Positions 34,521 through 62,383 of a stretch of 64,000 bases of DNA are shown here, one piece after another (positions within the stretch are counted from its first letter, which is position 1; every line of letters starts with the position of its first letter). A model generated the notes under the pieces. The model saw only the letters and a list, made by a program, of their open reading frames with translations, was not told the DNA's origin and made no database searches. Location: assembly GCA_000165345.1 (NCBI GenBank), contig CM000435.1, positions 64,001-128,000 on the forward strand, read 5' to 3'. The position numbers and the translations under genes were made by a program.

Positions 34521-34606
<86 letters not shown>

Positions 34607-35422
34607 ATATATATATAATATTATTTATATAATTTTTCCTTATTGCAGTTTTTTTTGTATATTAAATTTTCTTTTTTCTTATTAATGTACTATTATAAAT
34701 ATTTAATTATATTGGTGAATATTATTACCAACCAGTTATTATTAATATTATTATTTTATTTTCAATCTAATTTGTCCAAAAGCAATTATATAATTATTAA
34801 AATCTTAATTATTCCTTTCCAAATAACGATAATTTTACCCCTATAAATATCAAAACAAAAAAATTTTCTTTATTTCTTTAAATCTAAAATAAAATAATAA
34901 TTTTCAGAAAAATTAATTTTTTTTTCTATTTAATATTTTTGTTAGACATATTATATTATGCCTAAGTTACACACACGCATAGTAAATATTAAGTACAGGA
35001 AACCACTAGTTATTATTTTGGAAATTTCCATTTTTGTTTGTAATTTTTTGGTGGAACATTTTTTTAAAAAAATTATTTCATCAATTATAATAATATAGGA
35101 TTTTTTTTTACTACTTTATAATAGAGAAAGATAGGAAGTAAAGAAAAAAAAAAAAAAAGAATTACATGATTTATTTATTAAAAATAAAAGACCGCCCTCC
35201 ACAATAGTAATTAATATATAAATTAAAATTTGAAAATATATATTTGCATGAATTGCGCGCCTCTATTAGAAAAAGCGTTCTAGCGCCAAATTATTGGAAA
35301 AGTAAATAATTACTGTTAATTGTACACGTAATAGTAGTAATTATTATTATTACTGTCACTATTATCATTATCACTATCATTATCATTCTTTTACTTTTTA
35401 AAAACTATATTAGCTAAATCAA

Positions 35423-38400
35423 CTAGTTTGGTTGTTTTTCTTCGATTGTGTGTTCTCTTTGTTTGAAATTAGTGTCAGATACATGTTGAATAATTTTTAA
35501 GTTTAAAGAATATTGGTTATTAGAATTAAATGAAGGATTATGCGGATTTTGATTATTATAAAAATTGAATAAATATTGGAAAATAAGTTCATCAATAGAA
35601 TTATGTATAATAAAGTTCCAAATATGTGGGGTTTTAGTTTGACCCATACGAATAATTCTACCAATAGCTTGTAATTCATCAGATTTATTTAAAAGAGGAC
35701 TAACAAAAATGATATGATTTGCTGCAGTAATATTAACTCCTTTTCCAACATTTAAATGATTACATAAAAGTACTCTGTAATTTATATCTATTGAATTTTC
35801 TGAAGATGAGAATTCTCTGATAATATGATATTCAGATTTACCACCACAATATTTTTTAAAAAGTATTTCATTTAAATGCATAGCAGATGAAAGAATATCA
35901 ATAACAGGTTGAAAATCAGAAAAGATGATAATTTTATCATTATTATTATTTAATATCCATTTAATATGTTTAATAATAGCTTCTATTTTAGTTCCAAAAT
36001 TTCCAAGTATTTCTATTGATTGTATTGTATTAAAATAATCAATACCAAAATCTACTTGATTTGGTTTATTTAATGATTCATTAATTAAAGATGTTGAAGA
36101 ATTAATATTATTTTCTAGATTATTTTCTTTTATTATATTATGATTATCATTATCAGGTACTATTAAAACAACATTTGTATCTTGAAAATTCAATCTACAT
36201 TTAGGGCATTGATTCTTAAGTTTATGATTAGATGATGATTTTTTACTAATTAATTTATAACAATCAATACAAATGATATGAGCACAAGGTAAAAGAACTT
36301 GTGAATAATCATCTTTTAATTTATTTAAACATATTGGACAAATATCATGATCTTGATTTTCTTCTTTCTCTTTTTCATGATCTTTTTCTTGTAAAATTTC
36401 ATTTTTCCAATCTTTTTTAGATCTTTGTTGTAATTTAAGATGACAAAGAAATTTTTGTTGTGATTTTAGATTTCTTCTTACACCAAGAGCAGATATACGT
36501 TCAGATTCATATTTTTCTATTAAAAATGGAATTTCACTTATATGTATAATATTATTATGATTTGAAGATGAATTTGATTGATTATTTTGAATTATTTGAA
36601 TTCTTTGTTTACAATCAATAAGTTCTAAATAAGAATTAATTAATTGTCTAGTAGCTGATACAAATGCTTTAATATTATAAAGTTCAATCTTTAAAGATTC
36701 AATATACTTGATATGTTTTGTTGAAATCTTTGAAATAGAAGAAAAATCATCCATTTCATTCAATTCTTGTTCTTGTTCTTGTTCTTGTTCTTGTTCTTGT
36801 TCAAATTCTAATTCTTTTTCTTCATCTTTTGAGTTAGATCCTGATTTAAAGAATTTTTTTCTTAATTCTTTGTTTAAAAACTTTAAGATTGCAATAGTTT
36901 CTGAATCTCTTAAATATGTAGAATCATGATGAATTATTTTGTTTTGTTGATTATTATCAATTTCTATACTATGGTTATTATTACTACTTTCACTAAGCCT
37001 TGTAAAAGTTTTCTTTTTTATAGTATATAGTGAATATTCTAATTCTTCAATATGGGTTTGTATAATACAAAATATACAAGATTCTTGTTTTTGAATAAGT
37101 TTATTATTCTTTTTTCCTATATTTTTCTGTTGATTATCTTCTATTTGACTATTTTGTCCTTGTTGACAGAAAAAGCAAGATGTGACTTTTGCAATGATTT
37201 CATCAAGAATTAGTTGGGATTTTATATTTTGGTTTTGGTTTTGGTTTTGGTTCTGGTTCTGGCTCAAATCCAAGTTTTGGTTCTGGTTCACATCCAAGTT
37301 CTGGTTCACATCCAAGTTTTGACTTTGGTTCACATCCAAGTTCTGGTTTTGGTTTTGGTTCTGGTTCACATCCAAGTTCCGGTTTTGGTTCACATCCAAA
37401 TTCTGGTTCACATCCAAATTCTGGTTCACATCCAAATTCTGGCTCACATCCAAATTCTGGCTCACATCCAAATTCTGGCTCACATCCAAATTCTGGCTCA
37501 CATCCAAATTCTGGCTCATACTTTGGCTTGAACACGTATTTTGATCTTGGATATTATTAAACCTCAATAGTTCTAGTTGTTTTAGCTGGTGTAAAAGTTT
37601 TGTTCGAGATTCTTGCATTTGCTTAACTTTGAGATCTAAAGTAATAATGAGACCATGAATACTATTAAAACTTGGTAAATTATGTTCAATGTTACCATCT
37701 TTTGCACTCTTAAATTCATATTGAAAATTCTCAATCCTATCTAATAAAAGATCCTCTTCACTGATTCCTCCTTTAGTAGACATATTAAACTTTTTTTTAA
37801 ATATATACCACCAATGATCATCAGAATATAATGAATTTGCTTTATCTTTAGATTTAATAAACAAATCATGTTTTTCTATATATTCTTTAAAATATTTACT
37901 TCTATATTTATTTTCAAGATCATTACATTCTTTCATTAGTTCTTTTTTCTCCAATTCATCATTGCATATTTCTCCAAGATTCCATAATGTATGTATTTGT
38001 TGCAAAACATCGACTCTATCTTCCTTACGAATATCAAGTACTTGCTTATAATAGAAAACTGACTTGTTCATTTGCATATTATTATTATTATTATTATTAT
38101 TATTATCATCATCATCATCATATTTGGACTTTTTTGTAAAATGAATACCTGCTAAACCTAAAGTATTCATGACATATTTTCTTACACTTTCTTCAATATC
38201 AATTCTACATTTATTTAATAATTTATCTAAAATCTGATCCATAGTCATAATCTTTAATCCTGTATTTAAAGAAACAATACCCGTATCATTATGATTATCT
38301 AAATTATAATATTTACTATCATCATCTTTATTTTTATTATGGATACCCATAATACCTAATTGTGGATGTATACAAGCAAGTCTTAACATTGTAATCAATG

Positions 38401-41400
38401 AATCCATTTCTTTCTTATTTCTTAAAAAACTTTCTTGACTTTTATAATTAATTATACTATTATAACCTGATTCACATTGTTTTATATAAAAGAATCTTTC
38501 TACTGAAGATAAACTTAAATAAGTATTTCCATAAAATGCTGGTGGTATACATATTTCCTCTTTTACTTGTTTCATTTCTCTCCTGTAAAATAATGAACCT
38601 ACAACATACTCTAAATGTTGTATTAAATTCATCATTGAAATATACTCATTAGTTATATAATCCAAACCACTTTCACATACAAACCATCTTTCTTCCTTTA
38701 GTAACTTTTCCTCAGTTAAGAGCTCTTTTTCATTCTCATTCATATGATTGGGGTCCTTGGGTTGATTTTGGGGTCGACTTTGGGAGTAATCTTGATCCTC
38801 AGCTCGATCTTGGGATTGGTCCTCAGCTTGTTCTTGGGATTGATCCTCGACTTGATCCTCGACTTGATCCTCAGCTCGAACCTCGGCTTGATCCTCAGAT
38901 CCACCTTGAAATTCTGTATTACCTTTGTTAGACTTAATATACAATATACTAGACAAGTATCCAATATACTTTTTATATAAAGTGTCATTAATTAAATCAA
39001 ATCCAACATTTGAAAGATTTAATAATAAACCAATCAAATCATTTGAACAAGATCTAACAATTGGAGTACCAGAAACACACCATTTATTATAACATATTAA
39101 TTTACTTGTCATTTTTGAAACAAGAGAATAACCTTCAGTCATTTGAGCTTCATCTAAAACTATTCTCCACCAATCAATATTAGTAATTAAAGATGCTAAA
39201 ATAGGATAACTTTTTTTAAATCTCATTGATCTTTTGTTTGTAATAGTATTTTGATCTAATACATGATATATTTCTTCTTTTAAAATTTCATATGATGTTA
39301 AAACTACATCATAATTTAAAATATCTCTTCTAGTTAATATTATTCCATTATTATTAGTCATTGAATCTAAATTAATATCTTTATTATTTAATTTATTTAA
39401 TGCTCTATTTTTCAAATAATTTTGTATATATCTTACTCCTTGATATTTAACAACTTTAAGTCTTCCTTTTTCTAAATGTTTATTAAATTCATCATACCAT
39501 TGATCTACAATACTTCCAGGAGCTATAATTAAAGTAGCTTTTACTATTAATCTCTCATTTAATTCAATACTTTGACATAATGAACAAAGTAAATTAATAT
39601 TATCTAAATGATTAAAATTCATTATATTATCACTTATACAACATTCAAAGTGAAATTTAACTTGACATTTTTTACATTCTACTATATTATAATCTTTAAA
39701 AGGCTTAAAAACTCCACATGGACATTCAATTTCTATATTGTTATTATTATTGTTATCTTTGTACTTAAAAATAGGAAGAGAAGAATTTTTTTTAAAACAT
39801 TCTTCTTTATTATTCAAATTCAAATAATAATAATATTCTTTTCTTGGATTCATTAAAATTAAAGTAATAATCTCCAAACTTTTACCTAATCCCATTTCAT
39901 CACATAGAAATCCTCCTCTTATAGTAAAATGACCACCTCCTGATGGTAAAATATTGAAAGAAAGTTCACCTGTTATCATATTAAAATAAAGTAAATCTTG
40001 TTCATTTTCTTCTTTTTTTGGTATTTTTAAACAATACCAATATGGTGGATATTCAATATTTAATTTTACTGTTTCTTTTTCAACATTTAAAGCAAACAAA
40101 ACTGCATCTTTTTGGTAATTTCTTAACTCAGAAACTAAACCTAAATGATTATTCCAATCGTGATTTTGTTTTATTGTAGAAGAAGAAGATCCCATTCTTT
40201 TCATGGATATATTATATTCTTGAAATATTGAATATAACTCATTTGGCTTAATTTGTATTGTTTGAAAGGAATTTTTTTTATTTTTGATTTGATTATAAGT
40301 ATAATTTTCAATAGATGGAAGCTTAAGTTCTTCATTAAGCCATGAGAATAAGATTTTGAAGCTATTTTTACCATCTTTTTTTCTAGATAACAATTTTCCA
40401 TCTAAAGAAGTTCTATTTAAATACATTTTAATATTCATATTTAATACGATTCCTTTAGATCTCGAGCAATTACTAGAGGTTGTGGTGATGGAATTTGCAG
40501 TATTGGAGTTTGAAGTGTTGGAGTTCGCAGTATTGGAATTTGCAGTGTTGGAGTTTGAAGTGTTGGAGTTCGCAGTATTGGAGTTTGAAGTGTTGGAGTT
40601 CGCAGTATTGGAATTTGCAGTGTTGGAGTTCGCAGTATTGAAATTTGCAGTGTTGGAGTTCGCAGTATTGGAGTTTGCAGTGTTGGAATTTGTAGTATTG
40701 AAATTTGCAGTGTTGGAGTTCGCAGTATTGAAATTTGCAGTATTGGAGTTCGCAGTATTGAAATTTGCAGTATTGGAGTTTGCAGTCCCAAAGTTTGCAG
40801 TGATGGAATTTGAAGTGTTGGAGTTCGCAGTATTGGAATTTGAAATATTGGAGTTTGAAGTGCTGGAGTTCGCAGTATTGGAATTTGTAGTCCCAGAGTT
40901 TGAAGTATCAGAGTTTACAATGCTAAAGTTTCTTATATTATAACTATAACTTTTCTTTACACCCAATATTTCACAAGTAAAAGTTATAAATCCTGCATCT
41001 TGTAATAATATTAGTGCCTTTCTAACATTAAAATATGGTATTTTTGGTTTTAAATTTAACCAACTTATTGTTCCTCGTCCTAAAATACCTTCTTTTATAT
41101 TTAATTCATCATATTCTATATTTTCTTTCTCAAATTTATCATTCAATATCACAAATTCACATTTAGATTTATTTTCTTCTAATAATCCAATATGTACAAT
41201 AAACTCTTTATTTTGATCATTTAAAGAATTCATAATTTCTATAAAATCAATATTTTCATTTTCTTGAATAATTGTTATTTTAATATTTTCCCATATATTT
41301 AAACAACAAATTAAATCATTTAATTTGGTTATTATCTGTCTTTTATTATATTTTATTCCTAATTCTTCTTTTTTATTCAATTTTTTTGGCTTTTTTAAAT

Positions 41401-41551
41401 CTAAATCCAAATCTAAATCATTATCTAAATCCAATTTTAAATCCAAATTATTCTCTTCTTTCTTTAAATTATCTTCTTCTAAAATAAAATATTCTTTATC
41501 TTGATATAAAACTCCTCCATATCTCAATGGTTTTGCTTTAAATCTAACCAT
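35423..41551 (-). CDS. SNF2-family DNA-dependent ATPase with PHD and C3HC4 RING fingers (SHPRH/Rad5/Rad16-like), greatly expanded by low-complexity repeat insertions
   Basis: The tracked ORF begins at a TTG (41557). The ATG at 41549-41551 gives MVRFKAKPL. SNF2 N-lobe LCDEMGLGKSLE, APGSIVDQW, DEAQ box (WWRIVLDEAQMTE). PHD-like CPCGVF...CKKCQVKFHFECC...CSLCQ. RING CPICLNKL...LPCAHIICIDCYKL...CPKCR. Helicase-C block LLCNHLNVGKGVNITAANHIIFVSPLLNKSDELQAIGRIIRMGQTK. Repeat arrays (NSNTA)n, (NLDVSQ)n, (EDQ[AV])n and (EQ)n are all in frame. Confidence 0.85.
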   Translation of the reverse strand: MVRFKAKPLRYGGVLYQDKEYFILEEDNLKKEENNLDLKLDLDNDLDLDLDLKKPKKLNKKEELGIKYNKRQIITKLNDLICCLNIWENIKITIIQENENIDFIEIMNSLNDQNKEFIVHIGLLEENKSKCEFVILNDKFEKENIEYDELNIKEGILGRGTISWLNLKPKIPYFNVRKALILLQDAGFITFTCEILGVKKSYSYNIRNFSIVNSDTSNSGTTNSNTANSSTSNSNISNSNTANSNTSNSITANFGTANSNTANFNTANSNTANFNTANSNTANFNTTNSNTANSNTANSNTANFNTANSNTANSNTANSNTSNSNTANSNTSNSNTANSNTANSNTSNSNTANSITTTSSNCSRSKGIVLNMNIKMYLNRTSLDGKLLSRKKDGKNSFKILFSWLNEELKLPSIENYTYNQIKNKKNSFQTIQIKPNELYSIFQEYNISMKRMGSSSSTIKQNHDWNNHLGLVSELRNYQKDAVLFALNVEKETVKLNIEYPPYWYCLKIPKKEENEQDLLYFNMITGELSFNILPSGGGHFTIRGGFLCDEMGLGKSLEIITLILMNPRKEYYYYLNLNNKEECFKKNSSLPIFKYKDNNNNNNIEIECPCGVFKPFKDYNIVECKKCQVKFHFECCISDNIMNFNHLDNINLLCSLCQSIELNERLIVKATLIIAPGSIVDQWYDEFNKHLEKGRLKVVKYQGVRYIQNYLKNRALNKLNNKDINLDSMTNNNGIILTRRDILNYDVVLTSYEILKEEIYHVLDQNTITNKRSMRFKKSYPILASLITNIDWWRIVLDEAQMTEGYSLVSKMTSKLICYNKWCVSGTPIVRSCSNDLIGLLLNLSNVGFDLINDTLYKKYIGYLSSILYIKSNKGNTEFQGGSEDQAEVRAEDQVEDQVEDQSQEQAEDQSQDRAEDQDYSQSRPQNQPKDPNHMNENEKELLTEEKLLKEERWFVCESGLDYITNEYISMMNLIQHLEYVVGSLFYRREMKQVKEEICIPPAFYGNTYLSLSSVERFFYIKQCESGYNSIINYKSQESFLRNKKEMDSLITMLRLACIHPQLGIMGIHNKNKDDDSKYYNLDNHNDTGIVSLNTGLKIMTMDQILDKLLNKCRIDIEESVRKYVMNTLGLAGIHFTKKSKYDDDDDNNNNNNNNNMQMNKSVFYYKQVLDIRKEDRVDVLQQIHTLWNLGEICNDELEKKELMKECNDLENKYRSKYFKEYIEKHDLFIKSKDKANSLYSDDHWWYIFKKKFNMSTKGGISEEDLLLDRIENFQYEFKSAKDGNIEHNLPSFNSIHGLIITLDLKVKQMQESRTKLLHQLKQLELLRFNNIQDQNTCSSQSMSQNLDVSQNLDVSQNLDVSQNLDVSQNLDVNQNLDVNQNLDVNQNRNLDVNQNQNQNQNLDVNQSQNLDVNQNLDVNQNQNLDLSQNQNQNQNQNQNIKSQLILDEIIAKVTSCFFCQQGQNSQIEDNQQKNIGKKNNKLIQKQESCIFCIIQTHIEELEYSLYTIKKKTFTRLSESSNNNHSIEIDNNQQNKIIHHDSTYLRDSETIAILKFLNKELRKKFFKSGSNSKDEEKELEFEQEQEQEQEQEQELNEMDDFSSISKISTKHIKYIESLKIELYNIKAFVSATRQLINSYLELIDCKQRIQIIQNNQSNSSSNHNNIIHISEIPFLIEKYESERISALGVRRNLKSQQKFLCHLKLQQRSKKDWKNEILQEKDHEKEKEENQDHDICPICLNKLKDDYSQVLLPCAHIICIDCYKLISKKSSSNHKLKNQCPKCRLNFQDTNVVLIVPDNDNHNIIKENNLENNINSSTSLINESLNKPNQVDFGIDYFNTIQSIEILGNFGTKIEAIIKHIKWILNNNNDKIIIFSDFQPVIDILSSAMHLNEILFKKYCGGKSEYHIIREFSSSENSIDINYRVLLCNHLNVGKGVNITAANHIIFVSPLLNKSDELQAIGRIIRMGQTKTPHIWNFIIHNSIDELIFQYLFNFYNNQNPHNPSFNSNNQYSLNLKIIQHVSDTNFKQREHTIEEKQPN
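37210..37535. repeat. Imperfect 18-nt tandem repeat (GTTCACATCCAAGTTCTG-type) encoding the (NLDV[SN]Q)n/(NQ)n array inside the SNF2 gene
   Basis: Periodicity is visible directly (ttctggttcacatccaagtt... repeated more than 15 times). It stays in frame in the minus-strand CDS. Confidence 0.8.
38760..38900. repeat. 12-nt tandem repeat (GATCCTCGACTT-type) encoding (EDQ[AV]E)n inside the SNF2 gene
   Basis: cttgatcctcgacttgatcctcgacttgatcctcagctcg... Periodicity is visible and in frame. Confidence 0.75.
40455..40920. repeat. 15-nt tandem repeat (TGCAGTATTGGAGTT-type, about 30 copies) encoding the pentapeptide (NSNTA/NFNTA)n array inside the SNF2 gene
   Basis: agtattggagtttgaagtgttggagttcgcagtattggaatttgcagtgttggagtt... 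about 465 nt of 15-nt units with third-position variation. No stop codons in the CDS frame. Confidence 0.85.
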
Positions 41552-42360
41552 CTTCAAAAAAGTGATAAGAAGAAGAAAAAAAAAAAAAAGAAGAAATAAA
41601 AGAAAAAGAATAAGTGGAGGAAGAGGAATATGAATAAGAAGAAGATGAAGAAGATGAAGAAGAAGAAGAAATATAAATCTCTAACTCACATTAATTAAAA
41701 ATATAAAATGATAATTTTCCATTCAAATCCCTAAAAACTCTTTTTCACTTTTAATATGTATCCAAAAATATTAGATTTATATCTATTTTAAATACTAGTA
41801 ATCTGGATATCAAATATTATATATATTTTCACCATTAAATAAAATATATTTAAATATTCATTAATATATCATTAATATACCAAACTTTTATTTAATATCT
41901 AAAAAATAATTTTTTACTTTTTTTTTTTTTTTTATAATATAATTTTTTTTTTATATAATACATTACCGGTATACAAGAAATAAATTTATGATTAATTGTG
42001 CAGCAGATTACCGCCAAACACGTGTTATATTGATTATCTCATTTTAAAAACAAATAATATAAATAATGAAAAAAACGAATAAAAGGATTAAATGAGTAAA
42101 GTGAATACAATATTTATAGAAAACAATAATATTTTAAATAATTGTATTTGAATGAAAAATTGTTAAACTCTTGTTTGGATTTCAGTTACTTTAAATTATT
42201 AAGGTGGAAAAAAAACAAAGAAAAAAAGTTAAGTTAAAAAAAAAAAAAAATAATCTATTAAAACAATTTTAAAGATCCAAGATAAAATAAAATTATTAAT
42301 TAATAATACAATATTTAATTTATTTGATTTCTAATTTCTTATTTCAATAAAAAAAAAATT

Positions 42361-43323
42361 ATGTTTTCTATTTCAGAAAGATATGAACAAATTAATGCAC
42401 ATATTGGACAAGGTACTTATGGTAAAGTAGAAAAAGCAATAGACAAAAATAGTGATACTATAGTAGCTATAAAAAAAGTGAAAATATGTGAATTACCTTC
42501 AGATTTAACAGAATCTAGACAAAAAGTTGGACAATGTGGTATTCATTTCACAGTTTTAAGAGAAATTAAAATAATGAATGAAATTAATCATCCAAATATT
42601 ATGGGTTTAAGAGATGTTTTTGTTCAAGGAGATTTTATTAATTTAGTTATGGATTATATGGAAAGTGATTTAAGAAAAGTTTTTGAAAATAGAATTCGAT
42701 TTTCTGAATCACATATTAAATGTCTTTTAAAACAAATAATTCTTGGAATTAATGAATTACATAATTGGTTTATTATACACAGAGATTTAGCTCCTGCTAA
42801 TATCTTTATTAATTCAAAAGGTATAGCAAAAGTTGGTGATTTTGGATTAGCTAGAAGTTATGGACAACCACGTAGAGAATATACTCCTGAAGTTGTTACA
42901 TTATGGTATAGATGCCCAGAATTACTTTTTGGATCCACAAAATATACTCATGCTGTTGATATGTGGAGTATAGGTTGTATTTTTGCAGAACTCTTAACAG
43001 GTGGAAAAGCTTTATTACCTGGTGATGATGAAGTTAGACAACTTGGACGTATTTTTGAACTTTTAGGTACCCCAAATGAAGATAATTGGCCACAAGCTAA
43101 AGAATTACCTTTATATTGTGAATTTAGTCCAAGATCTCCATTAAATTTTAAAGATATCTTTCCCAATGCATCAGAAATGGCAATTGATCTTATTCAATCA
43201 TTTTTGAGACTTAATCCATTAGAAAGAATTTCAGCAAGTCAAGCTTTAGAACATGAATATTTTAAAAGTTATCCACTTCCATGTGATCCTTCCGAATTAC
43301 CACTTAATTACTTTAAAAACTAA
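42361..43323 (+). CDS. CDK7/MRK-like cyclin-dependent protein kinase
   Basis: 320 aa with ATG at 42361. YEQINAHIGQGTYGKVEKAIDKNSDTIVAIKKVKI; PSTAIRE-region variant FTVLREIKIMNEI; HRDLAPANIF; DFGLARSYG; T-loop REYTPEVVTLWYRCPE, the CDK activation-loop Thr context. Confidence 0.8.
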   Translation: MFSISERYEQINAHIGQGTYGKVEKAIDKNSDTIVAIKKVKICELPSDLTESRQKVGQCGIHFTVLREIKIMNEINHPNIMGLRDVFVQGDFINLVMDYMESDLRKVFENRIRFSESHIKCLLKQIILGINELHNWFIIHRDLAPANIFINSKGIAKVGDFGLARSYGQPRREYTPEVVTLWYRCPELLFGSTKYTHAVDMWSIGCIFAELLTGGKALLPGDDEVRQLGRIFELLGTPNEDNWPQAKELPLYCEFSPRSPLNFKDIFPNASEMAIDLIQSFLRLNPLERISASQALEHEYFKSYPLPCDPSELPLNYFKN

Positions 43324-43394
43324 CAAAAAGTTAATACAAAAGACTTTTATTAAATTAGAATTAATAATTAACTATAATAAAATATACTAAATTT

Positions 43395-44852
43395 TTAATA
43401 ATCATTCTTTATATTATCTATCATTGCTTTAGTTTTCCTATACTCTCTGCTCTTTTTGGATCCAGAATTACCTTTAGAACTATGATGTTTGTCATATTGA
43501 CTCACAAAAGACTTTCTTATTCTGTCTTTATCAAATTGTGTTGTCTTATTCTTCCTAGGAAGCCATAAATTATTTATTCTTTCATTAATAGCTCTTGCCT
43601 TAAACTCATCATACTCTTGTTTGTCAATTATTTCATCGTATTCTTCCTCTTCTTGATGTTCGTTATCGCTATTGTCTTGGTCTTGGTTTCGACAATTGTA
43701 TTCATCATCATCATCATCATCATCTTCTTCTTCTTCTTCTTCTTCTTCTTCTTCTTCTTCTTCCTCTTCCTCTTCCTCTTCCTCTTGAGTTGAATCGTCC
43801 TCTTCATGTGAGATTTCACTATTATCATGTAATTCTGATCCATCTAAGTTATTCTTTCCGTTATTTTGTGAAATTATTGTATTCAAATAATCAAGCCTAT
43901 TCATATCCCTATCAATCTTTCCAATATTAATGATCTTATTTGAGCTATGAACATTATCACTAGTAAATACAATAACATCCTCAAATTTTGGATACTCCAT
44001 GACCTGAATTCCAAATCTCTTTCTAAAAAGCTCAATAATACAGTTAACATCTCTATTAAAATACATCTCAGCATTAATATGGTCAGTATTAACAATCTGG
44101 GGAAAATCAATCAATGTTATATTTTCTTTGGAATCTATTAGTAAATTAAACTCATTAAAATCTCCATGTATAAGTCCACAATCTGCTAATCTTATAATCA
44201 TTTTCATTAGTCTTTCCAATGCTCCATATGGATCATCTAAATGTCGAATTGAATTAAGTGGTACTGCATCTATTAATTCCATAACTATAGCATGACGATT
44301 CCAATCAATTGGTTCTGGAACCTTAATTTCACCCTCATTAAATCCATTTTCATACAATGCTTTTAAACAACTGTATTCCTTCAAAGCTGCTAATCTAGAT
44401 AAATATAGCCAAGATGAAGTCTTTCTATTTCTTAAATAATCTCTTGTATTTTTAACATTTCTAAAAGATACTCTTCCTAATCTATGTAACTTTAAACATA
44501 TTAATTTCCCATTCTCATCAGCTGCTATATGTATATCACTCTCTTTACCTACTCCTATTCTTGCTCCTACTGATGATATTATTCCTCTCTTATTTAAAGC
44601 TCTTAAAGCTAAGAAATCATATCCTAAATACGATAATTTATACCCTTCATATATTTTACTTTCTCTAGATACTAATTTATTTCTTAATAGATTTTGCAAT
44701 AATTGATAACTCCCTGTTCTTCTTAAATTACTAATCGATTCTATAAGCTGTGGAGATACATACTCATGGTTTCTCATACCCATTTCTACTGCTGTCAATA
44801 TTCTCCATTCATCTTTACTGATGAATCTCATATTACTCACATCCAACTTCAT
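43395..44852 (-). CDS. RIO2: RIO2 atypical Ser/Thr kinase with poly-Glu/Asp C-terminal region
   Basis: 485 aa with ATG at 44850-44852. N-terminal RIO2 winged helix MRFISKDEWRILTAVEMGMRNHEYVSPQLI. RIO kinase core (GVGKESDIH..., LIHGDFNEFNLLI, IDFPQ). The acidic tract is encoded by (GAA/GAG)n at about 43690-43800. Confidence 0.85.
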   Translation of the reverse strand: MKLDVSNMRFISKDEWRILTAVEMGMRNHEYVSPQLIESISNLRRTGSYQLLQNLLRNKLVSRESKIYEGYKLSYLGYDFLALRALNKRGIISSVGARIGVGKESDIHIAADENGKLICLKLHRLGRVSFRNVKNTRDYLRNRKTSSWLYLSRLAALKEYSCLKALYENGFNEGEIKVPEPIDWNRHAIVMELIDAVPLNSIRHLDDPYGALERLMKMIIRLADCGLIHGDFNEFNLLIDSKENITLIDFPQIVNTDHINAEMYFNRDVNCIIELFRKRFGIQVMEYPKFEDVIVFTSDNVHSSNKIINIGKIDRDMNRLDYLNTIISQNNGKNNLDGSELHDNSEISHEEDDSTQEEEEEEEEEEEEEEEEEEEEDDDDDDDEYNCRNQDQDNSDNEHQEEEEYDEIIDKQEYDEFKARAINERINNLWLPRKNKTTQFDKDRIRKSFVSQYDKHHSSKGNSGSKKSREYRKTKAMIDNIKNDY

Positions 44853-45186
44853 TTTTGTATTTTATGTAAGTCTTCTCCTATAATTTCTTTTTCTTAATAA
44901 TCAACAAAGACAAAAACACTTATATTTATTTATAAAATATATTTTTAACCTTGATTATTATTTTTTTTTGACACGTAATTTTAGATTTATTTGATTGAAA
45001 AGATGAAGAATTTTTCTTTCCACAATTTCAACTCTTCAGTTATCTTTTACAAACTAAATTGGTTGCAATCAATCAGTGATTTAGTAATAATTTCTTAAAT
45101 TTACCACTTAACATAAACCTTCTTGCTATTTTTCTTTTTTTGAAATTTCTTCTTAACTATTATCGGTACCATAATGCATCACGTGG

Positions 45187-45210
45187 ATGGCGGCAGAATT
45201 CTGCCGCCAT
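45187..45210. promoter_or_regulatory. Perfect 24-bp palindrome ATGGCGGCAGAATTCTGCCGCCAT (paired GGCGGCA/E2F-like half-sites) in the divergent RIO2/CDP-DAG-synthase promoter
   Basis: The sequence equals its own reverse complement. Related imperfect copy ATGGCGGCACAATTCTAGCGCCAC at 19182-19205, upstream of GRASP. Confidence 0.6.
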
Positions 45211-45332
45211 TTTTTAATGAAAATGGTTGAAAGTTGAGAAATTATAAAACAAATAAATGAATAAAAAATTTTTTTTTTCAAAAAAAGTAAGTAATTAATT
45301 CATATTTTTCTTTTTTGTTTTAGTATAAAGAA

Positions 45333-45365
<33 letters not shown>

Positions 45366-45701
45366 TATAAATATTATTTATATATATTTATATATATATA
45401 TATATTTATAACATTTATGTTTACATATACATAAATATCTCATTTACATCTGATTAAATTGGAATACAGAGCTAAAAAAACGCAAAAAAGATAAACTTGA
45501 ATTACAACTTATGGTCTTATAGAATTGGAAAATTACTATAATCACTTTAAGAATATAAGAGTACTTTTCTATAAGTACTAAAGCTTTTCAAATTTTTATT
45601 ATTTTTGGTATTTGATTATCAGTAAATTAAGATAAACTATTGATATTTAACCCAACCCCCTTATCCTTTTTTTTTAAATTATTAAAAATAAAGTTTTTGG
45701 A

Positions 45702-47054
45702 ATGAAAAATTCAAGATATATAAGAAGTAATTCAATTTTTGATGATACAGAACATGAAACAGAGTCTGATAATTTTTTTAGTGAAGTTGAATTGAGAAGA
45801 AGAAATGGAAATAGAAAAGAATCATCTGAAAAGAATGGACATAAGGAAGGAAACAAAAATGGAATAATTGAAAACAGTAAAATAACAGGAAACCATTCAT
45901 CTACAAATAATAGCGGAGATCTTAATTGGGTAACTAGAACTATTTGGACAATAATCTTATTATCATCATTCCTAGTAATACTTGCAGCTGGACATACTTA
46001 TTCTGCAATGCTTGTACTTATTTTGATTTCAGCAGTATATCAAGAAGTTAATTCACTTAAAAGAAGTGCTGAAGAAGATAAACGTCTTCCATTCTTTTAT
46101 ACTTTACGTTGGTATTGGTTAGGAGTAACATTATTTTCAACAGGAAAATTATGGTGGGTTCCTTTAATTGAAAAATATAGAAGAAATTATTATTTATTAT
46201 ATTTAATAGTTTATTACCATTCTTTGATAAGTTATGTTGGAGCTTTATTTGGATTTATTGCTTTTATATTATCTCTAAGAAATTATACACTTAGATATCA
46301 ATTTTCTCAATTTGGAATAATGATTTTAAGCCTTTTACTTGTGGTAACTCAATCAGTTTTTATGATTGCTAATACTTATAGAGGCCTAATTTGGTTCATA
46401 CTTCCTTCATGTCTTGTTATATGTAATGATATATTTGCTTATATTGTTGGTAAAATCTTTGGGAAAACTCGACTCTTCAGACTTTCTCCAAAGAAAACGG
46501 TTGAAGGATTTATTGGAGCTTCTATTATCACTATTTTTGCTGCAATTATTCTTGGTAATGTTCTTTCCAAAAGTCAGATATTTATTTGTCCTCAAAATGA
46601 ATTACTTGAAAAACCTTTTTCAATGTGGTATGAATTAAAATGTGATCCTAATCCTGTATTTATTCAAAAACCATATAATATTCCACCATTTTTACATTTT
46701 ATTTTTGGTAAAGAACCTTTTCTAATTCCAGATTCACAATTCCATGCCATTGCTATTGGTATTTTTGCTGCTTTTGTTGCTCCTTTTGGTGGATTCTTTG
46801 CATCTGGTCTTAAAAGAGCTTTAAGAATTAAAGATTTTGGTTCTGCTATACCTGGCCATGGTGGAATCACTGATAGATTTGATTGTCAAATTCTTATTGG
46901 TCTGTTTACATATTTATATATTCGTGCATTTATCTTTACAAATCCCAAATCAGTATCTTTAGATATTGTCATAAAATTAGCTAAAATGCTACCAGAACCA
47001 GAAATTCAACATTTAATTTCTGTACTGTCTAGCCATATATCCAGTCAACAATAA
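45702..47054 (+). CDS. CDS1: Phosphatidate cytidylyltransferase (CDP-diacylglycerol synthase)
   Basis: 450 aa. Polytopic. CTP_transf_1 signature SPKKTVEGFIGASI and C-terminal GHGGITDRFDCQ, matching GHGGxxDRxD. Confidence 0.85.
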   Translation: MKNSRYIRSNSIFDDTEHETESDNFFSEVELRRRNGNRKESSEKNGHKEGNKNGIIENSKITGNHSSTNNSGDLNWVTRTIWTIILLSSFLVILAAGHTYSAMLVLILISAVYQEVNSLKRSAEEDKRLPFFYTLRWYWLGVTLFSTGKLWWVPLIEKYRRNYYLLYLIVYYHSLISYVGALFGFIAFILSLRNYTLRYQFSQFGIMILSLLLVVTQSVFMIANTYRGLIWFILPSCLVICNDIFAYIVGKIFGKTRLFRLSPKKTVEGFIGASIITIFAAIILGNVLSKSQIFICPQNELLEKPFSMWYELKCDPNPVFIQKPYNIPPFLHFIFGKEPFLIPDSQFHAIAIGIFAAFVAPFGGFFASGLKRALRIKDFGSAIPGHGGITDRFDCQILIGLFTYLYIRAFIFTNPKSVSLDIVIKLAKMLPEPEIQHLISVLSSHISSQQ

Positions 47055-47960
47055 ATTTTACTTTTAACTTCAATTTTTCTCTTTAACTCATATATTTTTT
47101 CTATTTTCCTTTCATTTATTGAAATTAATATAAATATTTCTAAGAGATTATTAATAATTAACCAAATCTTTGAAAAAAAGGGGAAAATCTATCTTTTTCT
47201 TTATTTCATCATCTTTTATGTACTAATTACTTTTTTTACCATTTTCCCCACCCTCCTTACATGCATTTTCTCCCCTTAAGTCCATTCTATTTAATAGTCT
47301 TCCACATAAATAAATAATTACGTCATTTATTGCATGCATGCATTTAATTACGTGTTTTAAAGTTATATTTTAAAATATATTACAAAAAATTATTTAATTA
47401 TTATTATACTTGAAAATTTCTTTTTTTCTTTCTTTATTAAATAATTTTAAATTGTAATGAAATATTTAAAAAATATTAATTTTAGTATAATTTTGTATTT
47501 GAACTTGACTGTGATTTGAAAAAAAAAAATCATTTATATTATTATTATAATTATTTTTTAACCAATATTAAATTATTATGTGCATTATAATAAAATTAAC
47601 GCAATTCTCCCGCTAAAATTGTTATATTGATTGACTGGTAATTTGGTTATCGAGACAATTTTAATAATACTTTCAAACTTGTTTAATAATAATATTTTGA
47701 ATTACTAGGAATATTATATTAAAATAATTCAGAATCACCATACTTTTTATTTTTTAACAATTTGATAAAAAAGATCATCTTTTTTTTTCTTCGAATTATC
47801 AACAATTCAAGACGAACTCCGAACTTAAAATTAATTTAGCCATAAATTATCGAAGGAAACCTCAATCAATTAAAAATAACTACTTTATCTTTTTAATTAA
47901 TATAATGATTTTTAATTTTAACAAATTATTTGATAACGGATATAAAATTGGTAACAAAAA

Positions 47961-50900
47961 ATGAAACTTGGTATTTTTGGAGATATATATTCCACTTTTT
48001 TCCCAATTGATTTATGTATAAAACTGTTAATATTCACTATTTCAATACTTTTATTTTTTTATATAGCCAATTTAATAATATGGAGAAGATATGATAAACA
48101 TACATATAAACACCAATCTTTTGAAATGATACTTATTCCATGTAGGAAAAATATTTACTCCAATATATTCAGATGTACTTTGAATTTTTTGACAGCAGTT
48201 CACTTAATATTAATCCCATTAGTTACTTATGACTCAGTAAGTGCTCCTGAAAGTTCTTCCATATTATATTGGAGAAAGAAAGCTGAAGTTTTCTTAGTGG
48301 AATATGTTGTTGCTTTAATAATTTGCATAGGAAGAAAATTATTTACACAAAGAATTAGGCTCACTTTGATAATGCCATCAAATCTTTTTGATTGTAATTT
48401 TGTATGTTTGTGGGTACGTGATAATAATAATATTAATAATAATCATAATCATGATCATAATACAAATGATAATATTATTCAATCCATAAATAAAGATCCA
48501 AGTTATTCAACTTTAAATAAAAAATTTCTCAATTTTTACAAGAAAAGTCTTGCATTTTTAGATGGTGAAATGACAGGATTTAAATATTATGGTTGTCATA
48601 TACAAACAGATGAATCCTCTGGAATTAGGTATTTTATTGCTGGATCAACAAGATTTGTATTTTCTATAGAAACTGGGACTTTTTTGCCTCAAATACAATC
48701 AAGTAGAGTTAGTGTAAATCAAATTGAAAATGCTTTGAATTGTGGAGGACATTCAGAAGCTTCTGTTATTTCTTATTTATCTGTTTTTGGAAAAAATGAA
48801 TTACCATATGAAACTGAGCCTGCATTACTTGTAATGAAACGTATTTTCTTTTGTCCAACTTTCATTTTACAATATTTAATGCTCTCAACAACTTTCTTTT
48901 TGAGGTTTTTCACTTGGTCATTTTGTTGGTCGGCTTTAATTTTATATACAAACCTATTTAGTTTCTTTAAAGATATTTTTAGAAATAGAAAACTCTTAAA
49001 AGAAACCCATGAAATTAATAATCGACCAGTTAAAGTAATACGTGGGAATATTAAAAAATCGATTAAAGCGTCTGATATTGTCCTTTTTGATATTGTATTA
49101 TCTGAAACAGGAGATATTGCACCTTGCGATATGATACTTATGGAAAAATTAGTACTTGTTGACGAATCAAGTTTGACAGGTGAAGCAACACCTGTTTTTA
49201 AAAAGCCTCTTGATTTATCAGCGCTTTCAAATTCTCAAATACTTTCAGCTAGTGATAATATTCTTAAAGACTCTTTGATTCATGCTGGATGTAAAATTAT
49301 TAAAGTATTTGGCGGAGATGAATCAAATGATTCATTAATTTCCGTAGTCTTAAATACTGGTGTTTTTACATTTAAATCAAAAATTCTGCGTACAGTTTCT
49401 CAAAATATGATTTCTGATGATTTTCATAATGATATTCCGTTATTGTGGTTATTAACTTTATCAGTTGCATCAGTTGTTATAACAGTACAATGCTTAATTT
49501 CACAATTTAATATTGGGTCCATATTCTTCATTTTAGGTACTTTACTACAACTTCTTCCAATTTGGGCACCAGCTTTTGTACAATCATGCATTAATAGTTC
49601 AGTTTCAACATTAAAAAATGATAAAAATGTTGAAAGTTCTTACCCAAGAAGAATCTTGTTTGCTAGTAAATTGGATACATTATTCTTTGATAAGACTGGT
49701 ACTTTAACAATGAATGATTACGTACTTGATAATGTTGAAAGATTAAATTCTGATTTACTTGAAGATCAGGGATTCTTTACTGGAAATGAACGCTATTCTG
49801 AAAGAATAGTTAGGGGAATAAATGGAGAAAAAATTGATATATTAAAAATGGCAATTTCAACTTGCCATTCATTATCTTTTGTTCCTGATCAAGGCGATGG
49901 AGGGTATTATGGAGATTCAATTGAAAAGGAAATGCTTAAGTTTACAAGATCTTGTATTTATGAGAAGTCCTCATTAAACGATAGATCTTTAAGAAGGTTT
50001 GTTTTTGAAAAAGGAGCTGAATTTGATCTTGAAAATATCTATAGAAGCCACAATACTGCAAATCTTGAGAAAAAGCTCAGTAAAGGATGCGAAATACTGA
50101 AGATATTCGATTTTAATGGCGTTAGTAGGTCAATGAGTGTTATTGTTCGTTGTAACGTCACAGATAGAGTCTTTTTATTTACTAAAGGCGCATCTGAATC
50201 CATTTTAAAGTTTTCAATTAAGAACCAATCGACTGAGGAAATTGAATTTAGAACATCTAAACTATCTTCTTCAGGATTTTATGTAATAATAATAGCTTAT
50301 CGGGAATTGAAATCCGATAAAGAGTCAATTGAATTGTATAGATTATTAAACGAAAGTGAAAGAATTAATTTTGAAGTTGACTTAATTCCAGTTGGAATTC
50401 TTTGTTTTTCAAATTGTATTAGAAAGGAAGCACCATTTATCATTAAGGAAATTAAAGATCTTGGAATTAAGCCCATAATTCTAACAGGCGATAATTCAGA
50501 TTGTGCATTGTGCGTTGCTAAACAAGTTGGAATTATTAATAGCCAATTCAAAGTCTCTAATATTGAGGCAAAACTTAACCTTTGCGAAATTGACTTGAAT
50601 AGCCACCAAATTGCTGTATTGTGTTGTATTATTTCCGGAAAATTAGTTTTTTTGAATGAATTTAGACATGAAATTGATCTGGAGGAAGTTATTAAAAATT
50701 TGAATAAGATAAGATTAGTTGTAACATTTGAATCTTACGAAATGATGAGCAAGACTATTCTGCATAATTATGAAGGTATTGTTAATCCATTAAAAAATGA
50801 TTCCAAACAAGCATTTTTGAGTAATGAGACTCTTTTGGACTTGTTTAAAAATAATATTTCAGTAATTTCAAGAGCTAACCATATTAATAAACAGAGTGTT

Positions 50901-58253: not shown

Positions 58254-58269
58254 TTGGCGCCGGCGCCAA
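58254..58269. promoter_or_regulatory. Double E2F-like palindrome TTGGCGCCGGCGCCAA in the divergent RPAP2-like/RPC11 promoter
   Basis: Two overlapping GGCGCC cores form a 16-bp perfect palindrome 48 nt upstream of the RPC11 ATG. Confidence 0.6.
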
Positions 58270-58316
58270 TTTCCTATTTTGACATTTTTTTTTTGAAAAT
58301 TAATATATTATGGAGA

Positions 58317-58911
58317 ATGGTGCAGTTTTGTATTCATTGCCACAATATTCTTTTACTTAAGGAACATGAGGAGAGAATGGCATTTTATTGTCCCACATGT
58401 CCTTATGTATTCAAAATTGTGAGCCAAATTAGCAAAGTAACAGATTTTGTTCCCAAAAAGATGGAAGAACCTTCTATAGATATGAACGAAATTGCAAGCT
58501 CAAAGACAATGGGTAAGTTAAGATTATATAGTGGTAGTACTATTATTTGTAGAAGAGATCTTTATTTATTACTATATTATACAAATAAATTATATTTGTA
58601 TATTCAAAGTATTATTTATCAATTAATAAAAAAGGGAATATGAAAAAAAAAATTAAATATATTATAAGTCCTTAAAATACCTAATTATATATAAATCTCT
58701 TAAATAATACTACTATCTCTAAATATTTGCCAATTACTTTAATAATAACTTCCTATTTTACTGGTGCTCTTTATTTAAACTTTTAGCTGTTTGTCCAAAG
58801 TGCTCATTTTCTGAAGCTTACTTCTTCCAATTACAAATTAGATCAGCTGATGAACCAATGACAAGCTTTTATACTTGTGTAAAATGTGACTTCAAATGGA
58901 AGGAAAATTAA
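58317..58911 (+). CDS. RPC11: DNA-directed RNA polymerase III subunit RPC11 (C11/POLR3K), two exons (58317..58512 and 58787..58911). Not in ORF track as a spliced gene
   Basis: Exon 1: MVQFCIHCHNILLLKEHEERMAFYCPTCPYVF..., the N-terminal Zn ribbon (CxxC...CxxC). GTAAGT donor at 58513. TTTTAG acceptor ending at 58786. Phase-1 junction (G+CT = Ala). Exon 2: VCPKCSFSEAYFFQLQIRSADEPMTSFYTCVKCDFKWKEN* is the TFIIS-type C-terminal Zn ribbon, with the RSADE acidic hairpin typical of C11/A12.2. Spliced product is 106 aa. Confidence 0.6.
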
Positions 58912-58915
58912 TGAA

Positions 58916-61252
58916 TTAATTAAATATAGTTGACGCTGATATAATTGATACATCTTGTATTGGTCTATCATTCCTATTAGTTGAAACATGCTCAATTTCT
59001 TTCACAATCTCTTTACCATGAACAACCTTACCAAATATAGTATGTACTCCATCCAACCATGGACAAGATGCTGTTGTTATAAAGAATTGGCTACCATTTG
59101 TATTTGGGCCTGCATTTGCCATACTTAAAGTGAATGGTTCATCATGCTTAACATTTGGTGAAATTTCATCTTCAAATTCTTTACCCCATATAGATACTCC
59201 GCCAATACCTTGTCCAGTTGGATCACCAGTTTGTATCATAAAACCTTTAATAACTCTATGAAAAATACAATTGTTATAATATCCATTAAAACAGTGTACT
59301 GAAAAGTTTTCACAAGCTTTAGGAGCAATTTCTGGATAAAGTTCTAAAGTAATATCTCCTTTAGTCGTATGTAGTATAACTTGTTTTGCAATTCTAACAT
59401 ATGCATTACTTCTTTCTTTCCCTTTATTTGAGAATTGTTCCAATTGTTTTTGTCTCTCAATTTCTTCACTACTTGGTAATTCATTAAATATATCTCTTTT
59501 TAAATTAACATCACCATTATCTAGTAATGGTAATCTTTTTGAAAATATATATATACGATTTGATTTATAAGCAGAAGTAATAATAGCTGAATCAACATTA
59601 CTTAAATGATTATCATTGTAATTAATTCCTCTATGTATTTGTAATAATCCCAAATTAAGAAATCTTTTTCCTGTTTCAAATTTACCAATAATTAAAACAC
59701 GCTTTCCAATTTGTATATCAAGTACACATACACCAATCATACAAGTATATATTAGAAATCTAGACGTTTCATCAAAGACCATATTCTGCATGTTATAATA
59801 TTCTGGAAGATTTTGAATTTCTGTTTCAACTGATGATCTAACACCAAATTCTAAATGGTCAATATGTAAGTAGTCATATTCTGGATTGCTCTGCATTACA
59901 TTATAAGATGATATATTTTCATCAAATATTTTATAGCATTTACCTGTTTGAATTAAAAATAATCTAATTTTATAGTCAGAACATTTGATTGCAAGATTTC
60001 TTTCATCATTACTTACTACCATATTAATTGCATAACATTTATTCTTTTGTAACTCAAATAAATCTGTTTCTATTTTATATTGAAATTTGATAGGATTCAA
60101 TTCATTATCTTGGATATTTCTTCTTGGTAAAGTCATTGTCCAAGGATCCCAAAATTCTAATCCACCTGATATATCTCCTGATATAATTATTCCTAAGTTT
60201 GGTAAAAACTTCAAGCATGTAACTTGAGCTTTATGATTATTATATTTTGGAAAGCTTTCATTATCTGGATCTTTTTCATTATTAATAAGTAAATTACCTC
60301 CTTTAATTGAATATATATATATAGATCCTGTTTTCAATTCTGATAGCACAATTTGGGGATATATTAATCCACTTGATAAATTAAATGTATTTATATTTCG
60401 CATATTACTTTTATTTTTATCATTCTTATTCCCATGATTATTGATAGAACTGGAAGATAATCCTCCTCCTATTGATGATAAAAATACGCATCTATTAGGA
60501 TATATGGGAATTCTTATTATAGAAATCATGTCAAAATTTGATATACTATATAATTTAATATCTTTTTCATTTTCTGATATACTTGCCATATATTGTTCAC
60601 AATTTGAAATAGAAATATCAGATACTTCATTTTTATGAGCTTGAAAGCCTTTTACAAATTCTAATGAAGTGATTACTGGAGAAGATAATTCTTTTGTTTG
60701 ATTTTCTTTTTCCCTTAATATTTCTTTTTCTGACCTTAATCTCCAAAATTTTATCACACCATCTTTACTTGCTGTAATAATAAACCCCGTTTTATTACTA
60801 GATAATATGTGAGTAACTTGTTTTTTATGCATAAAACTGCATTCATAAAAATCTGTTTTTGGAATATTTACTATTTTCTCCAGTTCTTTCTCTCTATTCC
60901 TCTCCCTTTCTTTATTATCTTTATTTTCTGATTCAACTTTCTCAATAGAGTCATTAGTTGTCAACATTGTGGGCATTGGCCCTAGAGAGTCATCATCATC
61001 ATCATCAACATCATCCTTATTATCTTCTTTTATTTCCTTTAATTGATTATTAGTTATGACTTCAATTTTCCTTGTTTTCAATTTATTTGAATAGCCCAAT
61101 TCATATTTATCATTAGAAAAATCAGGCTCTAGATAGCTAAACTGCTGATCTTCATCTTTCTTACTTTTATCAACAAAATCTGTAAAGCCAGGACCAAAAT
61201 CTTCACTACCATCTGAGCTTTCGCCTTCCTGTAATTGATTTTGCAAACTCAT
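58916..61252 (-). CDS. PPWD1: Peptidyl-prolyl cis-trans isomerase (cyclophilin) with N-terminal WD40 repeats (PPWD1/Cyp71-like)
   Basis: 778 aa with ATG at 61250-61252. WD-repeat region of about 450 aa. C-terminal cyclophilin domain HTTKGDITLELYPEIAPKACENF...FHRVIKGFMIQTGDPTGQGIGGVSIWG...GPNTNGSQFFITT...LDGVHTIFGKVV. Confidence 0.85.
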   Translation of the reverse strand: MSLQNQLQEGESSDGSEDFGPGFTDFVDKSKKDEDQQFSYLEPDFSNDKYELGYSNKLKTRKIEVITNNQLKEIKEDNKDDVDDDDDDSLGPMPTMLTTNDSIEKVESENKDNKERERNREKELEKIVNIPKTDFYECSFMHKKQVTHILSSNKTGFIITASKDGVIKFWRLRSEKEILREKENQTKELSSPVITSLEFVKGFQAHKNEVSDISISNCEQYMASISENEKDIKLYSISNFDMISIIRIPIYPNRCVFLSSIGGGLSSSSINNHGNKNDKNKSNMRNINTFNLSSGLIYPQIVLSELKTGSIYIYSIKGGNLLINNEKDPDNESFPKYNNHKAQVTCLKFLPNLGIIISGDISGGLEFWDPWTMTLPRRNIQDNELNPIKFQYKIETDLFELQKNKCYAINMVVSNDERNLAIKCSDYKIRLFLIQTGKCYKIFDENISSYNVMQSNPEYDYLHIDHLEFGVRSSVETEIQNLPEYYNMQNMVFDETSRFLIYTCMIGVCVLDIQIGKRVLIIGKFETGKRFLNLGLLQIHRGINYNDNHLSNVDSAIITSAYKSNRIYIFSKRLPLLDNGDVNLKRDIFNELPSSEEIERQKQLEQFSNKGKERSNAYVRIAKQVILHTTKGDITLELYPEIAPKACENFSVHCFNGYYNNCIFHRVIKGFMIQTGDPTGQGIGGVSIWGKEFEDEISPNVKHDEPFTLSMANAGPNTNGSQFFITTASCPWLDGVHTIFGKVVHGKEIVKEIEHVSTNRNDRPIQDVSIISASTIFN

Positions 61253-61814: not shown

Positions 61815-62383
61815 ATGAGAGATCCGTCTAATTCTAGCGATATTAATATGAGCTATGATGATCAAAAACAAATTAATCGTTTTAGTTCTTTATTAAGCCG
61901 AAAAGTTGAGTTGAAGGGTGAGCTTGAGAGATTTAAGGTAAGTTGGTTTTAATGGCCATTTAATAAAGTTCTTCATTTAACTTTATTTTTTGTTTTTAGG
62001 AAAATCTCCAAACACATTGTGATGCATTAGATGAAATTGCATTATGTATGGACCCTGAGGGAATTCTGTAAGTTTTAATTATTTAATTAATAGTTAATTA
62101 AATTCCATATATATTAAATTTATTTAATTTATCTTCAATTCTTCTCCCCCACTTTATTCAAAATTTTATATACCCATATTTATATTATAGAATTCGTGTT
62201 GGTGAATCATATTATCATGCTTCAGAAGATGAAGCCACTGAAAAGATTGAGGAGCTCAAATCTCAAGTTGAAGGCAGAATTGAAGAGATTTCCAAAGAAC
62301 TATCTTCAATTCAACAAGAAATGGATAAATTAAAGGTTGATTTATATCTTAAATTCGGGTCAAACATCAACCTAGATGAATAA
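61815..62383 (+). CDS. PFD4: Prefoldin subunit 4, three exons (61815..61937, 62000..62067, 62191..62383). Not in ORF track
   Basis: Exon 1: MRDPSNSSDINMSYDDQKQINRFSSLLSRKVELKGELERFK, then GTAAGT. Exon 2: ENLQTHCDALDEIALCMDPEGI(L), flanked by TTTTTAG and GTAAGT. Exon 3: IRVGESYYHASEDEATEKIEELKSQVEGRIEEISKELSSIQQEMDKLKVDLYLKFGSNINLDE*. This matches prefoldin-4 (QKINKF...; ...LYAKFGSNINLE). Phases 0 and 2 are consistent. Spliced product is 127 aa. Confidence 0.65.

Follow-up and report, generated by a model that had tools for sequence, protein, structure and literature searches.

A two-exon gene on chromosome 7 of Cryptosporidium parvum that very probably encodes RNA polymerase III subunit C11

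Introduction

Subunit C11 is a universal component of RNA polymerase III (Pol III). In the stretch of 64,000 nucleotides of Cryptosporidium parvum chromosome 7 analysed here (hereafter the window), two zinc ribbons characteristic of this protein family lie on the same strand and are separated by a segment that breaks the reading frame. An earlier note, prepared from the letters of this DNA, proposed that the two ribbons belong to a single spliced C11 gene that had gone unannotated and lay hidden because its intron interrupts the open reading frame (ORF). The locus therefore raises the questions of whether the two halves form one gene, whether the product belongs to Pol III rather than to a related polymerase, whether the gene is new, and what to make of an intron that was called long for this genome.

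Results and discussion

Splice sites of the predicted C11 gene

The ORF listed mechanically at 58254..58643 begins with TTG and, as claimed, runs through the proposed donor. When the sequence was read again, the GTAAGT donor (58513-58518), the TTTTAG acceptor ending at 58786 and the distance of 274 nt between them were all recovered, and every coordinate in the earlier note matched. The gene (Table 1) starts with the ATG at 58317 and a protein N-terminus that reads MVQFCIHCHN, and the tail of its first exon encodes SSKTM. The intron splits the codon for Ala66 as G/CT, and the second exon continues as VCPKCSFSEAYFFQLQIRSADEPMTSFYTCVKCDFKWKEN up to the TAA at 58909-58911. From the spliced coding sequence of 321 nt, the predicted product of 106 amino acids was reproduced. 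The short distance to the convergent stop of the neighboring cyclophilin-WD40 gene was likewise confirmed, with a gap of 4 nt at 58912-58915.

Table 1. Features of the predicted C11 gene and its upstream region (positions are those of the window)
Feature	Position	Strand	Description
Putative promoter element	58254..58269		Perfect 16-nt palindrome TTGGCGCCGGCGCCAA, two overlapping E2F-like sites
Out-of-frame upstream ATG and 16-codon ORF	58310..58360	+	7 nt before the C11 start; TAA at 58358-58360; overlaps the true start
C11 exon 1	58317..58512	+	196 nt, codons 1-65 and base 1 of codon 66; N-terminal RPB9-type zinc ribbon and linker
C11 spliceosomal intron	58513..58786	+	274 nt, phase 1, GTAAGT...TTTTAG, 82% A+T
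C11 exon 2	58787..58911	+	Bases 2-3 of codon 66, codons 67-106, TAA; TFIIS-type zinc ribbon and acidic hairpin

Little freedom exists in the placement of this intron. The AG at 58785-58786 is the sole AG between the last stop codon in the frame of exon 2 (TAA at 58720) and the ribbon, so the acceptor is forced, and there is no alternative acceptor in that interval. A stop-free in-frame product can be obtained from nine GT donors, only one of which (58513) reads GTAAGT, the sixmer that opens 84% of Cryptosporidium introns (PMC2483917). We rejected the other eight, which are without this consensus and none of which is located where conservation ends. The choice of splice sites at C11 is far beyond chance. 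Moreover, the intron has a GC content of 17.9% versus approximately 34% in the C11 exons. Its boundaries, its extended 5′ consensus and its restoration of a conserved reading frame are those of a U2-type GT-AG intron, and the boundaries are kept at all 11 loci that we compared.

Conservation across Cryptosporidium

The C. parvum locus was compared with its counterparts in C. ryanae, C. serpentis, C. felis, C. ubiquitum, C. tyzzeri, C. hominis (two assemblies), C. canis, chipmunk genotype I and a taxon represented by an ENA metagenome contig. The same phase-1 junction and a product of 106 amino acids were found at 11 loci in 10 taxa, with the junction reading ATGG/GTAAGT...AG/CYGT (the donor is GTATGT in C. 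serpentis). The gene order RPAP2/Rtr1 (-), C11 (+) and cyclophilin-WD40 (-) is kept at all nine genome loci that carry annotation; the ENA contig is short, and the neighbors on it carry no informative annotation. Intron length ranges widely among the loci (48, 69, 85, about 130, 237 and 269-274 nt). The exons align without gaps at 80-100% identity, and the intron aligns at 35-71% with insertions and deletions, similar to the upstream spacer. Relative to C. canis, exon 2 exhibits 20 synonymous and no non-synonymous codon differences, and codons 1-20 exhibit nine synonymous differences and one non-synonymous difference. Across the genus, purifying selection on both C11 exons is strong. Thus, exon conservation and the synonymous bias against C. 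canis support both the splice and the start at M1.

These comparisons bear directly on an older description of the locus. In 2004, the C. parvum Iowa II annotation presented two independent unspliced genes: cgd7_505, a 108-amino-acid 'hypothetical protein' (EAK90597.1/XP_628241.1) that is a read-through of exon 1, and cgd7_510, a 62-amino-acid 'RNA polymerase III subunit C11, partial' (EAK90672.1/XP_628242.1) that corresponds to exon 2. These models occupy the same locus and differ from ours only by the missing intron. Both are still found in GenBank, and the records of C. ubiquitum, C. canis, chipmunk genotype I and C. hominis TU502 continue to include read-through models of the same kind. 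However, amino acid conservation ends exactly at SSKTM-G, and the read-through tails beyond this point are unrelated between species. The length of the spliced product also remains constant at 106 residues while the intron varies from 48 to 274 nt. Furthermore, there is no ATG upstream of the ribbon in the frame of exon 2, which is therefore not translatable alone, and cgd7_510 itself was retired as an exon in 2015. As a result, we consider the existence of two separate genes to be extremely improbable, and a single gene with two exons is the structure used below.

Status in public records

The exact 106-amino-acid protein has been deposited as CUV07027.1, KAK9171303.1, KAL3126837.1 and KAL5367358.1, and its UniRef name is 'DNA-directed RNA polymerase subunit'. 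Among these records, the merged model CUV07027.1 has 100% identity with our predicted product. In the reannotation by Isaza et al. 2015 (Table S1), cgd7_510 was retired and merged as an exon of the flanking gene, and cgd7_505 was given a new double-zinc-ribbon domain. A change of model in that study required RNA-seq support from TopHat, and a 2022 reannotation states that 100% of its introns are supported by RNA-seq. The splice model is thus supported by the cross-species comparison and by the published statement that reannotated models needed RNA-seq support. The spliced C11 product was absent from the Logan contigs (assembled from raw runs) that were searched, and a literature search on cgd7_505 and cgd7_510 returned only prefix matches to unrelated gene identifiers.

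The proposal that the gene is unannotated consequently does not stand: the exact spliced protein is in GenBank, its model was published in 2015, and exon 2 was already named as a partial C11 in 2004. The description of the gene as hidden holds for a mechanical ORF track only and fails for the public records. The C11 gene is already known, and because both the exact protein and the 2015 model were public, its reconstruction here is a correct rediscovery rather than the finding of a new gene.

Several related species carry models that depart from this structure. Three C. hominis entries (OLQ17724.1, PPA62834.1 and PPS95941.1) and the C. felis model start at Met21, which yields 86 amino acids and removes half of the N-terminal ribbon. 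Read-through models of exon 1, with exon 2 left unannotated, have been assigned to C. ubiquitum (cubi_02726, 88 amino acids), C. canis (OIY81_2822, 98 amino acids, and OJ252_2514, 84 amino acids), chipmunk genotype I (101 amino acids) and C. hominis TU502 (XP_666651.1, 116 amino acids). The full spliced protein of 106 residues is encoded at all of these misannotated loci in C. felis, C. ubiquitum, C. hominis, C. canis and chipmunk genotype I. For the ENA metagenome taxon, the 69-nt intron is in frame and free of stops, which explains its read-through model of 129 amino acids (P0009).

Identity of the product

The proposed N-terminal ribbon of the CxxC...CxxC type is formed by C5, C8, C25 and C28, and a search of the spliced product with Pfam places PF02150 (Zn_ribbon_RPB9) over residues 2-32 with 26.7 bits, above its cut-off of 25.2. 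The second set of zinc ligands (C68, C71, C96 and C99) falls within PF01096 (Zn_ribbon_TFIIS), which matches residues 67-104 with 71.7 bits against a cut-off of 21. There is consequently one Pfam zinc-ribbon domain per exon. Between the two cysteine pairs of the C-terminal ribbon sits the acidic hairpin R84-S-A-D87-E88-P89, as expected from the claim that exon 2 encodes a TFIIS-type ribbon with an RSADE hairpin. The RSADEP residues align column for column with yeast and human RPC10, the yeast equivalents of D87 and E88 being D91 and E92, and the C. parvum hairpin QLQIRSADEPMTSFYTC is nearly identical to that of yeast C11 (QLQIRSADEPMTTFYKC).

In size and overall organization, the C. parvum protein also resembles the C11 subunits that have been characterized. 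Saccharomyces cerevisiae Rpc11/C11 (RPC10, PDB 5fj8 chain I) has 110 residues and human POLR3K (PDB 7a6h and 7fji, chain I) has 108, compared with 106 in C. parvum. All three can be aligned over their entire length from M1 onward and carry a pair of four-cysteine zinc ribbons, with near-identical hairpins of the form QLQIRSADEPMT(T/S)FY, and the C-terminal WKEN is common to C. parvum and yeast. The linker of the C. parvum protein is 2-4 residues shorter than those of yeast and human C11 and is only moderately similar to them, and identity to C11 proteins from outside Cryptosporidium is approximately 40-48%.

The TFIIS-type ribbon PF01096 is common to C11, RPA12.2 of Pol I, RPB9 of Pol II, TFIIS and archaeal TFS, and RPA12 and RPB9 carry the N-terminal ribbon PF02150 as well. 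RPA12, TFIIS and TFS have the acidic hairpin mechanism in common with C11, and representatives of the RPA12, RPB9 and TFIIS families all appear in the list of PDB matches. It could therefore be argued that the product is RPA12, RPB9, TFIIS or a TFS-like factor rather than a Pol III subunit. However, among all PDB chains, the best natural match is yeast RPC10/C11 (5fj8_I, 74.8 bits, residues 1-106 versus 1-110), and human RPC10 matches end to end with 72.2 bits. The PDB comparison ranks C11 (72-75 bits) above RPB9 (at most 56; best match 55.8), RPA12 (at most 42; best match 42.3 before rounding) and TFIIS (37.4). The RPA12 and TFIIS alignments are confined to the C-terminal part of the C. parvum protein, extending over only the C-ribbon in the case of TFIIS. 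RPB9 is without the DE pair, as exemplified by the metazoan-like sequence in PDB 9mu7 (chain I), which carries RRAEEE in place of the RSADE acidic pair. Likewise, a length of 106 residues fits C11 (108-110) and not the longer RPA12 (119-126) or TFIIS (approximately 300).

Database names lead to the same assignment. Among the matches listed from a search of 5.8 billion proteins, those with names from outside Cryptosporidium are labeled C11, RPC10 or RPC11, or bear a generic polymerase-subunit label, and none is named RPB9 or RPA12. The assignment to Pol III rather than to Pol I or Pol II is supported by this ranking of sequence matches, and we regard membership in one of the paralogous families as highly improbable. 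Overall, the family searches and the ten Cryptosporidium taxa compared uphold the identity that was proposed: the locus very probably represents the C. parvum Pol III subunit C11 (RPC10/RPC11, the POLR3K orthologue), encoded by two exons across a 274-nt intron.

Upstream region and choice of start codon

The 212-nt spacer between the divergent genes for RPAP2/Rtr1 (-) and C11 (+) contains the palindrome listed in Table 1. Its core, GGCGCCGGCGCC, occurs once in the window versus 0.02 times expected. This core recurs before the C11 start codon in most taxa of the intestinal clade: at approximately -50 to -65 from the ATG, it is found in C. parvum, C. tyzzeri, C. ubiquitum, C. canis, chipmunk genotype I and one of the two C. 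hominis loci. It carries one mismatch in the second C. hominis locus and is degenerate and located further upstream in C. ryanae. The palindrome matches the published E2F motif of C. parvum (TGGCGCCA or DTTGSCGCCH), and E2F-like motifs dominate the promoters of this organism (PMC3734150). It is plausible, judging from sequence, that the palindrome serves as a promoter element shared by C11 and RPAP2/Rtr1. Transcription would probably start downstream of the conserved E2F-like palindrome, approximately 50 nt upstream of the ATG. In the window as a whole, GGCGCC is overrepresented (8 observed versus 0.65 expected), with sites that include 13695, 14395, 23769, 26355, 32446 and 61450. This excess fits the view that promoters in the C. 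parvum genome are marked by E2F motifs.

The same spacer includes an out-of-frame ATG at 58310, with A at -3 and G at +4, that could lower initiation at M1 if it is located inside the mRNA. An extension of this idea is that ribosomes meet this ATG and re-initiate downstream, such that the main product begins at Met21 and has 86 residues. A distance of 17 nt separates the end of the 16-codon upstream ORF from the Met21 codon, the context of its ATG is as just described, and models of this length are those deposited for C. hominis and C. felis. However, the first 20 codons are conserved as coding sequence against C. canis, as described above, and M1 of the full-length product coincides in the alignment with M1 of both yeast and human RPC10. 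The shorter form would also be deprived of C5 and C8, and with them of half the zinc ligands in the N-ribbon. C. ubiquitum, C. canis, C. serpentis and others do not have the upstream ATG, that of C. felis is a different one at -5, and the DNA of both C. hominis and C. felis encodes the full 106 residues. We therefore judge a main product from Met21 to be very unlikely and retain M1 as the start of C11.

Origin and content of the long intron

Published C. parvum introns have a mean length of 99 bp (n=688; PMC4637869), and an earlier set had a median of 61, a mean of 82 and an SD of 73 (n=213; PMC2483917). At 274 nt, the C11 intron is approximately 2.8 times the mean of 99 and 4.5 times the median of 61, and its description as long is thus fair. 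No embedded element was recovered that could account for this length. A search of the C11 region with Rfam at E-values up to 10 gave no meaningful match and none within the intron, and the whole window returned nothing at gathering scores. The intron contains no C/D or H/ACA boxes (TGATGA, CTGA or a 3′ ACA), and its folding reveals no excess structure (z = -0.49). An intron-hosted snoRNA or other structured RNA was rejected on the basis of the Rfam, box and folding-energy results. A repeat or mobile insertion was ruled out by a blastn comparison with the rest of the window, which yielded only short AT-rich low-complexity matches and no repeat. In the cross-species alignment, there is no strongly conserved block inside the intron besides the splice sites and short AT-rich motifs. 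One such motif, TAATAAC at 58743-58749, is kept in five taxa and represents no more than a candidate branch region; a clear branch-point consensus is lacking in C. parvum (PMC2483917).

Evidence on the age of the intron comes from a plant. In Tasmannia lanceolata (P0019), the C11 gene is interrupted by an intron at the identical position and likewise in phase 1, with SKTE/A/SCPKC in the plant versus SKTM/A/VCPKC in C. parvum (slashes flank the residue whose codon is split). The shared site falls in the Ala codon that precedes the first cysteine of the C-ribbon by two residues, and the exon ends flanking it are at 510/8067 in the Tasmannia coordinates versus 58512/58787 in the window. The plant intron at this site is 7556 nt long, and a further intron, in phase 0, follows codon 38 of the plant gene. 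The single intron of the fly C11 gene is located elsewhere, near codon 47, the outgroups considered being this one plant gene and this one fly gene. Because position and phase are the same in T. lanceolata, the C11 intron is probably an ancestral eukaryotic intron that has been retained in the intron-poor genus Cryptosporidium.

Neighboring genes and convergent overlap

Downstream of C11, the convergent gene at 58916..61252 (-), with its stop at 58916-58918, encodes 778 amino acids and is a fusion of WD40 and cyclophilin domains according to Pfam (EAK90537.1). The protein on the other flank is the RPAP2/Rtr1 homologue EAK90536.1, also on the minus strand. Because the convergent stops nearly abut in the C. 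parvum clade, the two mRNAs must overlap in antisense orientation, with the cyclophilin-WD40 mRNA extending through C11 exon 2. Reciprocally, the 3′ UTR of C11 must overlap the cyclophilin-WD40 gene. Extensive UTR overlap between neighboring genes is reported to be normal in the C. parvum genome (bioRxiv 10.1101/2025.01.17.633476).

Taxa with introns of 237-274 nt have 0-4 nt between the convergent stops, versus 31-392 nt in taxa with introns of 48-130 nt. This inverse relation between intron length and 3′ spacer length is suggestive only. One could speculate that the roughly five-fold lengthening of the intron in the intestinal clade of C. parvum (237-274 nt versus 48-130 nt in C. ryanae, C. 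serpentis, C. felis and the ENA taxon) is connected with the shrinkage of the 3′ spacer to 0-4 nt, and that the AT-rich intron supplies the 3′-end/poly(A) region of the cyclophilin-WD40 mRNA. We consider this proposal improbable, but if it were true, the C11 intron would double as 3′-UTR space shared with the opposite strand. In a related scenario, C11 dosage might be regulated by the antisense overlap, by intron retention or by the upstream ATG at -7.

Other observations were made in the same window. Beyond the cyclophilin gene lies a three-exon prefoldin gene at 61815-62383 (+), with exons at 61815-61937, 62000-62067 and 62191-62383 and introns of 62 and 123 nt that both have the form GTAAGT...TAG. 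Its product of 127 amino acids matches Prefoldin_2 (PF01920) with 56.7 bits over profile positions 1-105 of 106 and looks like subunit 4. No single ORF of at least 150 amino acids is present at this gene. Base composition varies along the window: 16 kb at 32001-48000 have a GC content of only 19-26% and include an ORF of 2044 amino acids at 35423..41557 (-), and GC rises to as much as 41.7% within 22001-24000. A tRNA scan of the window found none.

Predicted function and implications

By analogy with yeast and human C11, the N-ribbon would serve to anchor the protein to the core of Pol III. The mobile C-ribbon would swing into the pore of the enzyme, where D87 and E88 would complete the active site for intrinsic cleavage of the RNA 3′ end, as their counterparts do in these model proteins. 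Such cleavage would support proofreading, would help to rescue backtracked complexes, and would assist both termination and re-initiation on tRNA, 5S and U6 genes. From these parallels, we infer that Cryptosporidium C11 is present in Pol III and stimulates RNA cleavage, termination and re-initiation.

The value of the present analysis is in demonstrating that this spliced gene can be reconstructed from raw sequence; it otherwise adds little for C. parvum, for which the same model has been public since 2015. For the other members of the genus, the models of C. hominis, C. felis, C. ubiquitum, C. canis and chipmunk genotype I can be corrected by transfer of the C. parvum junction.
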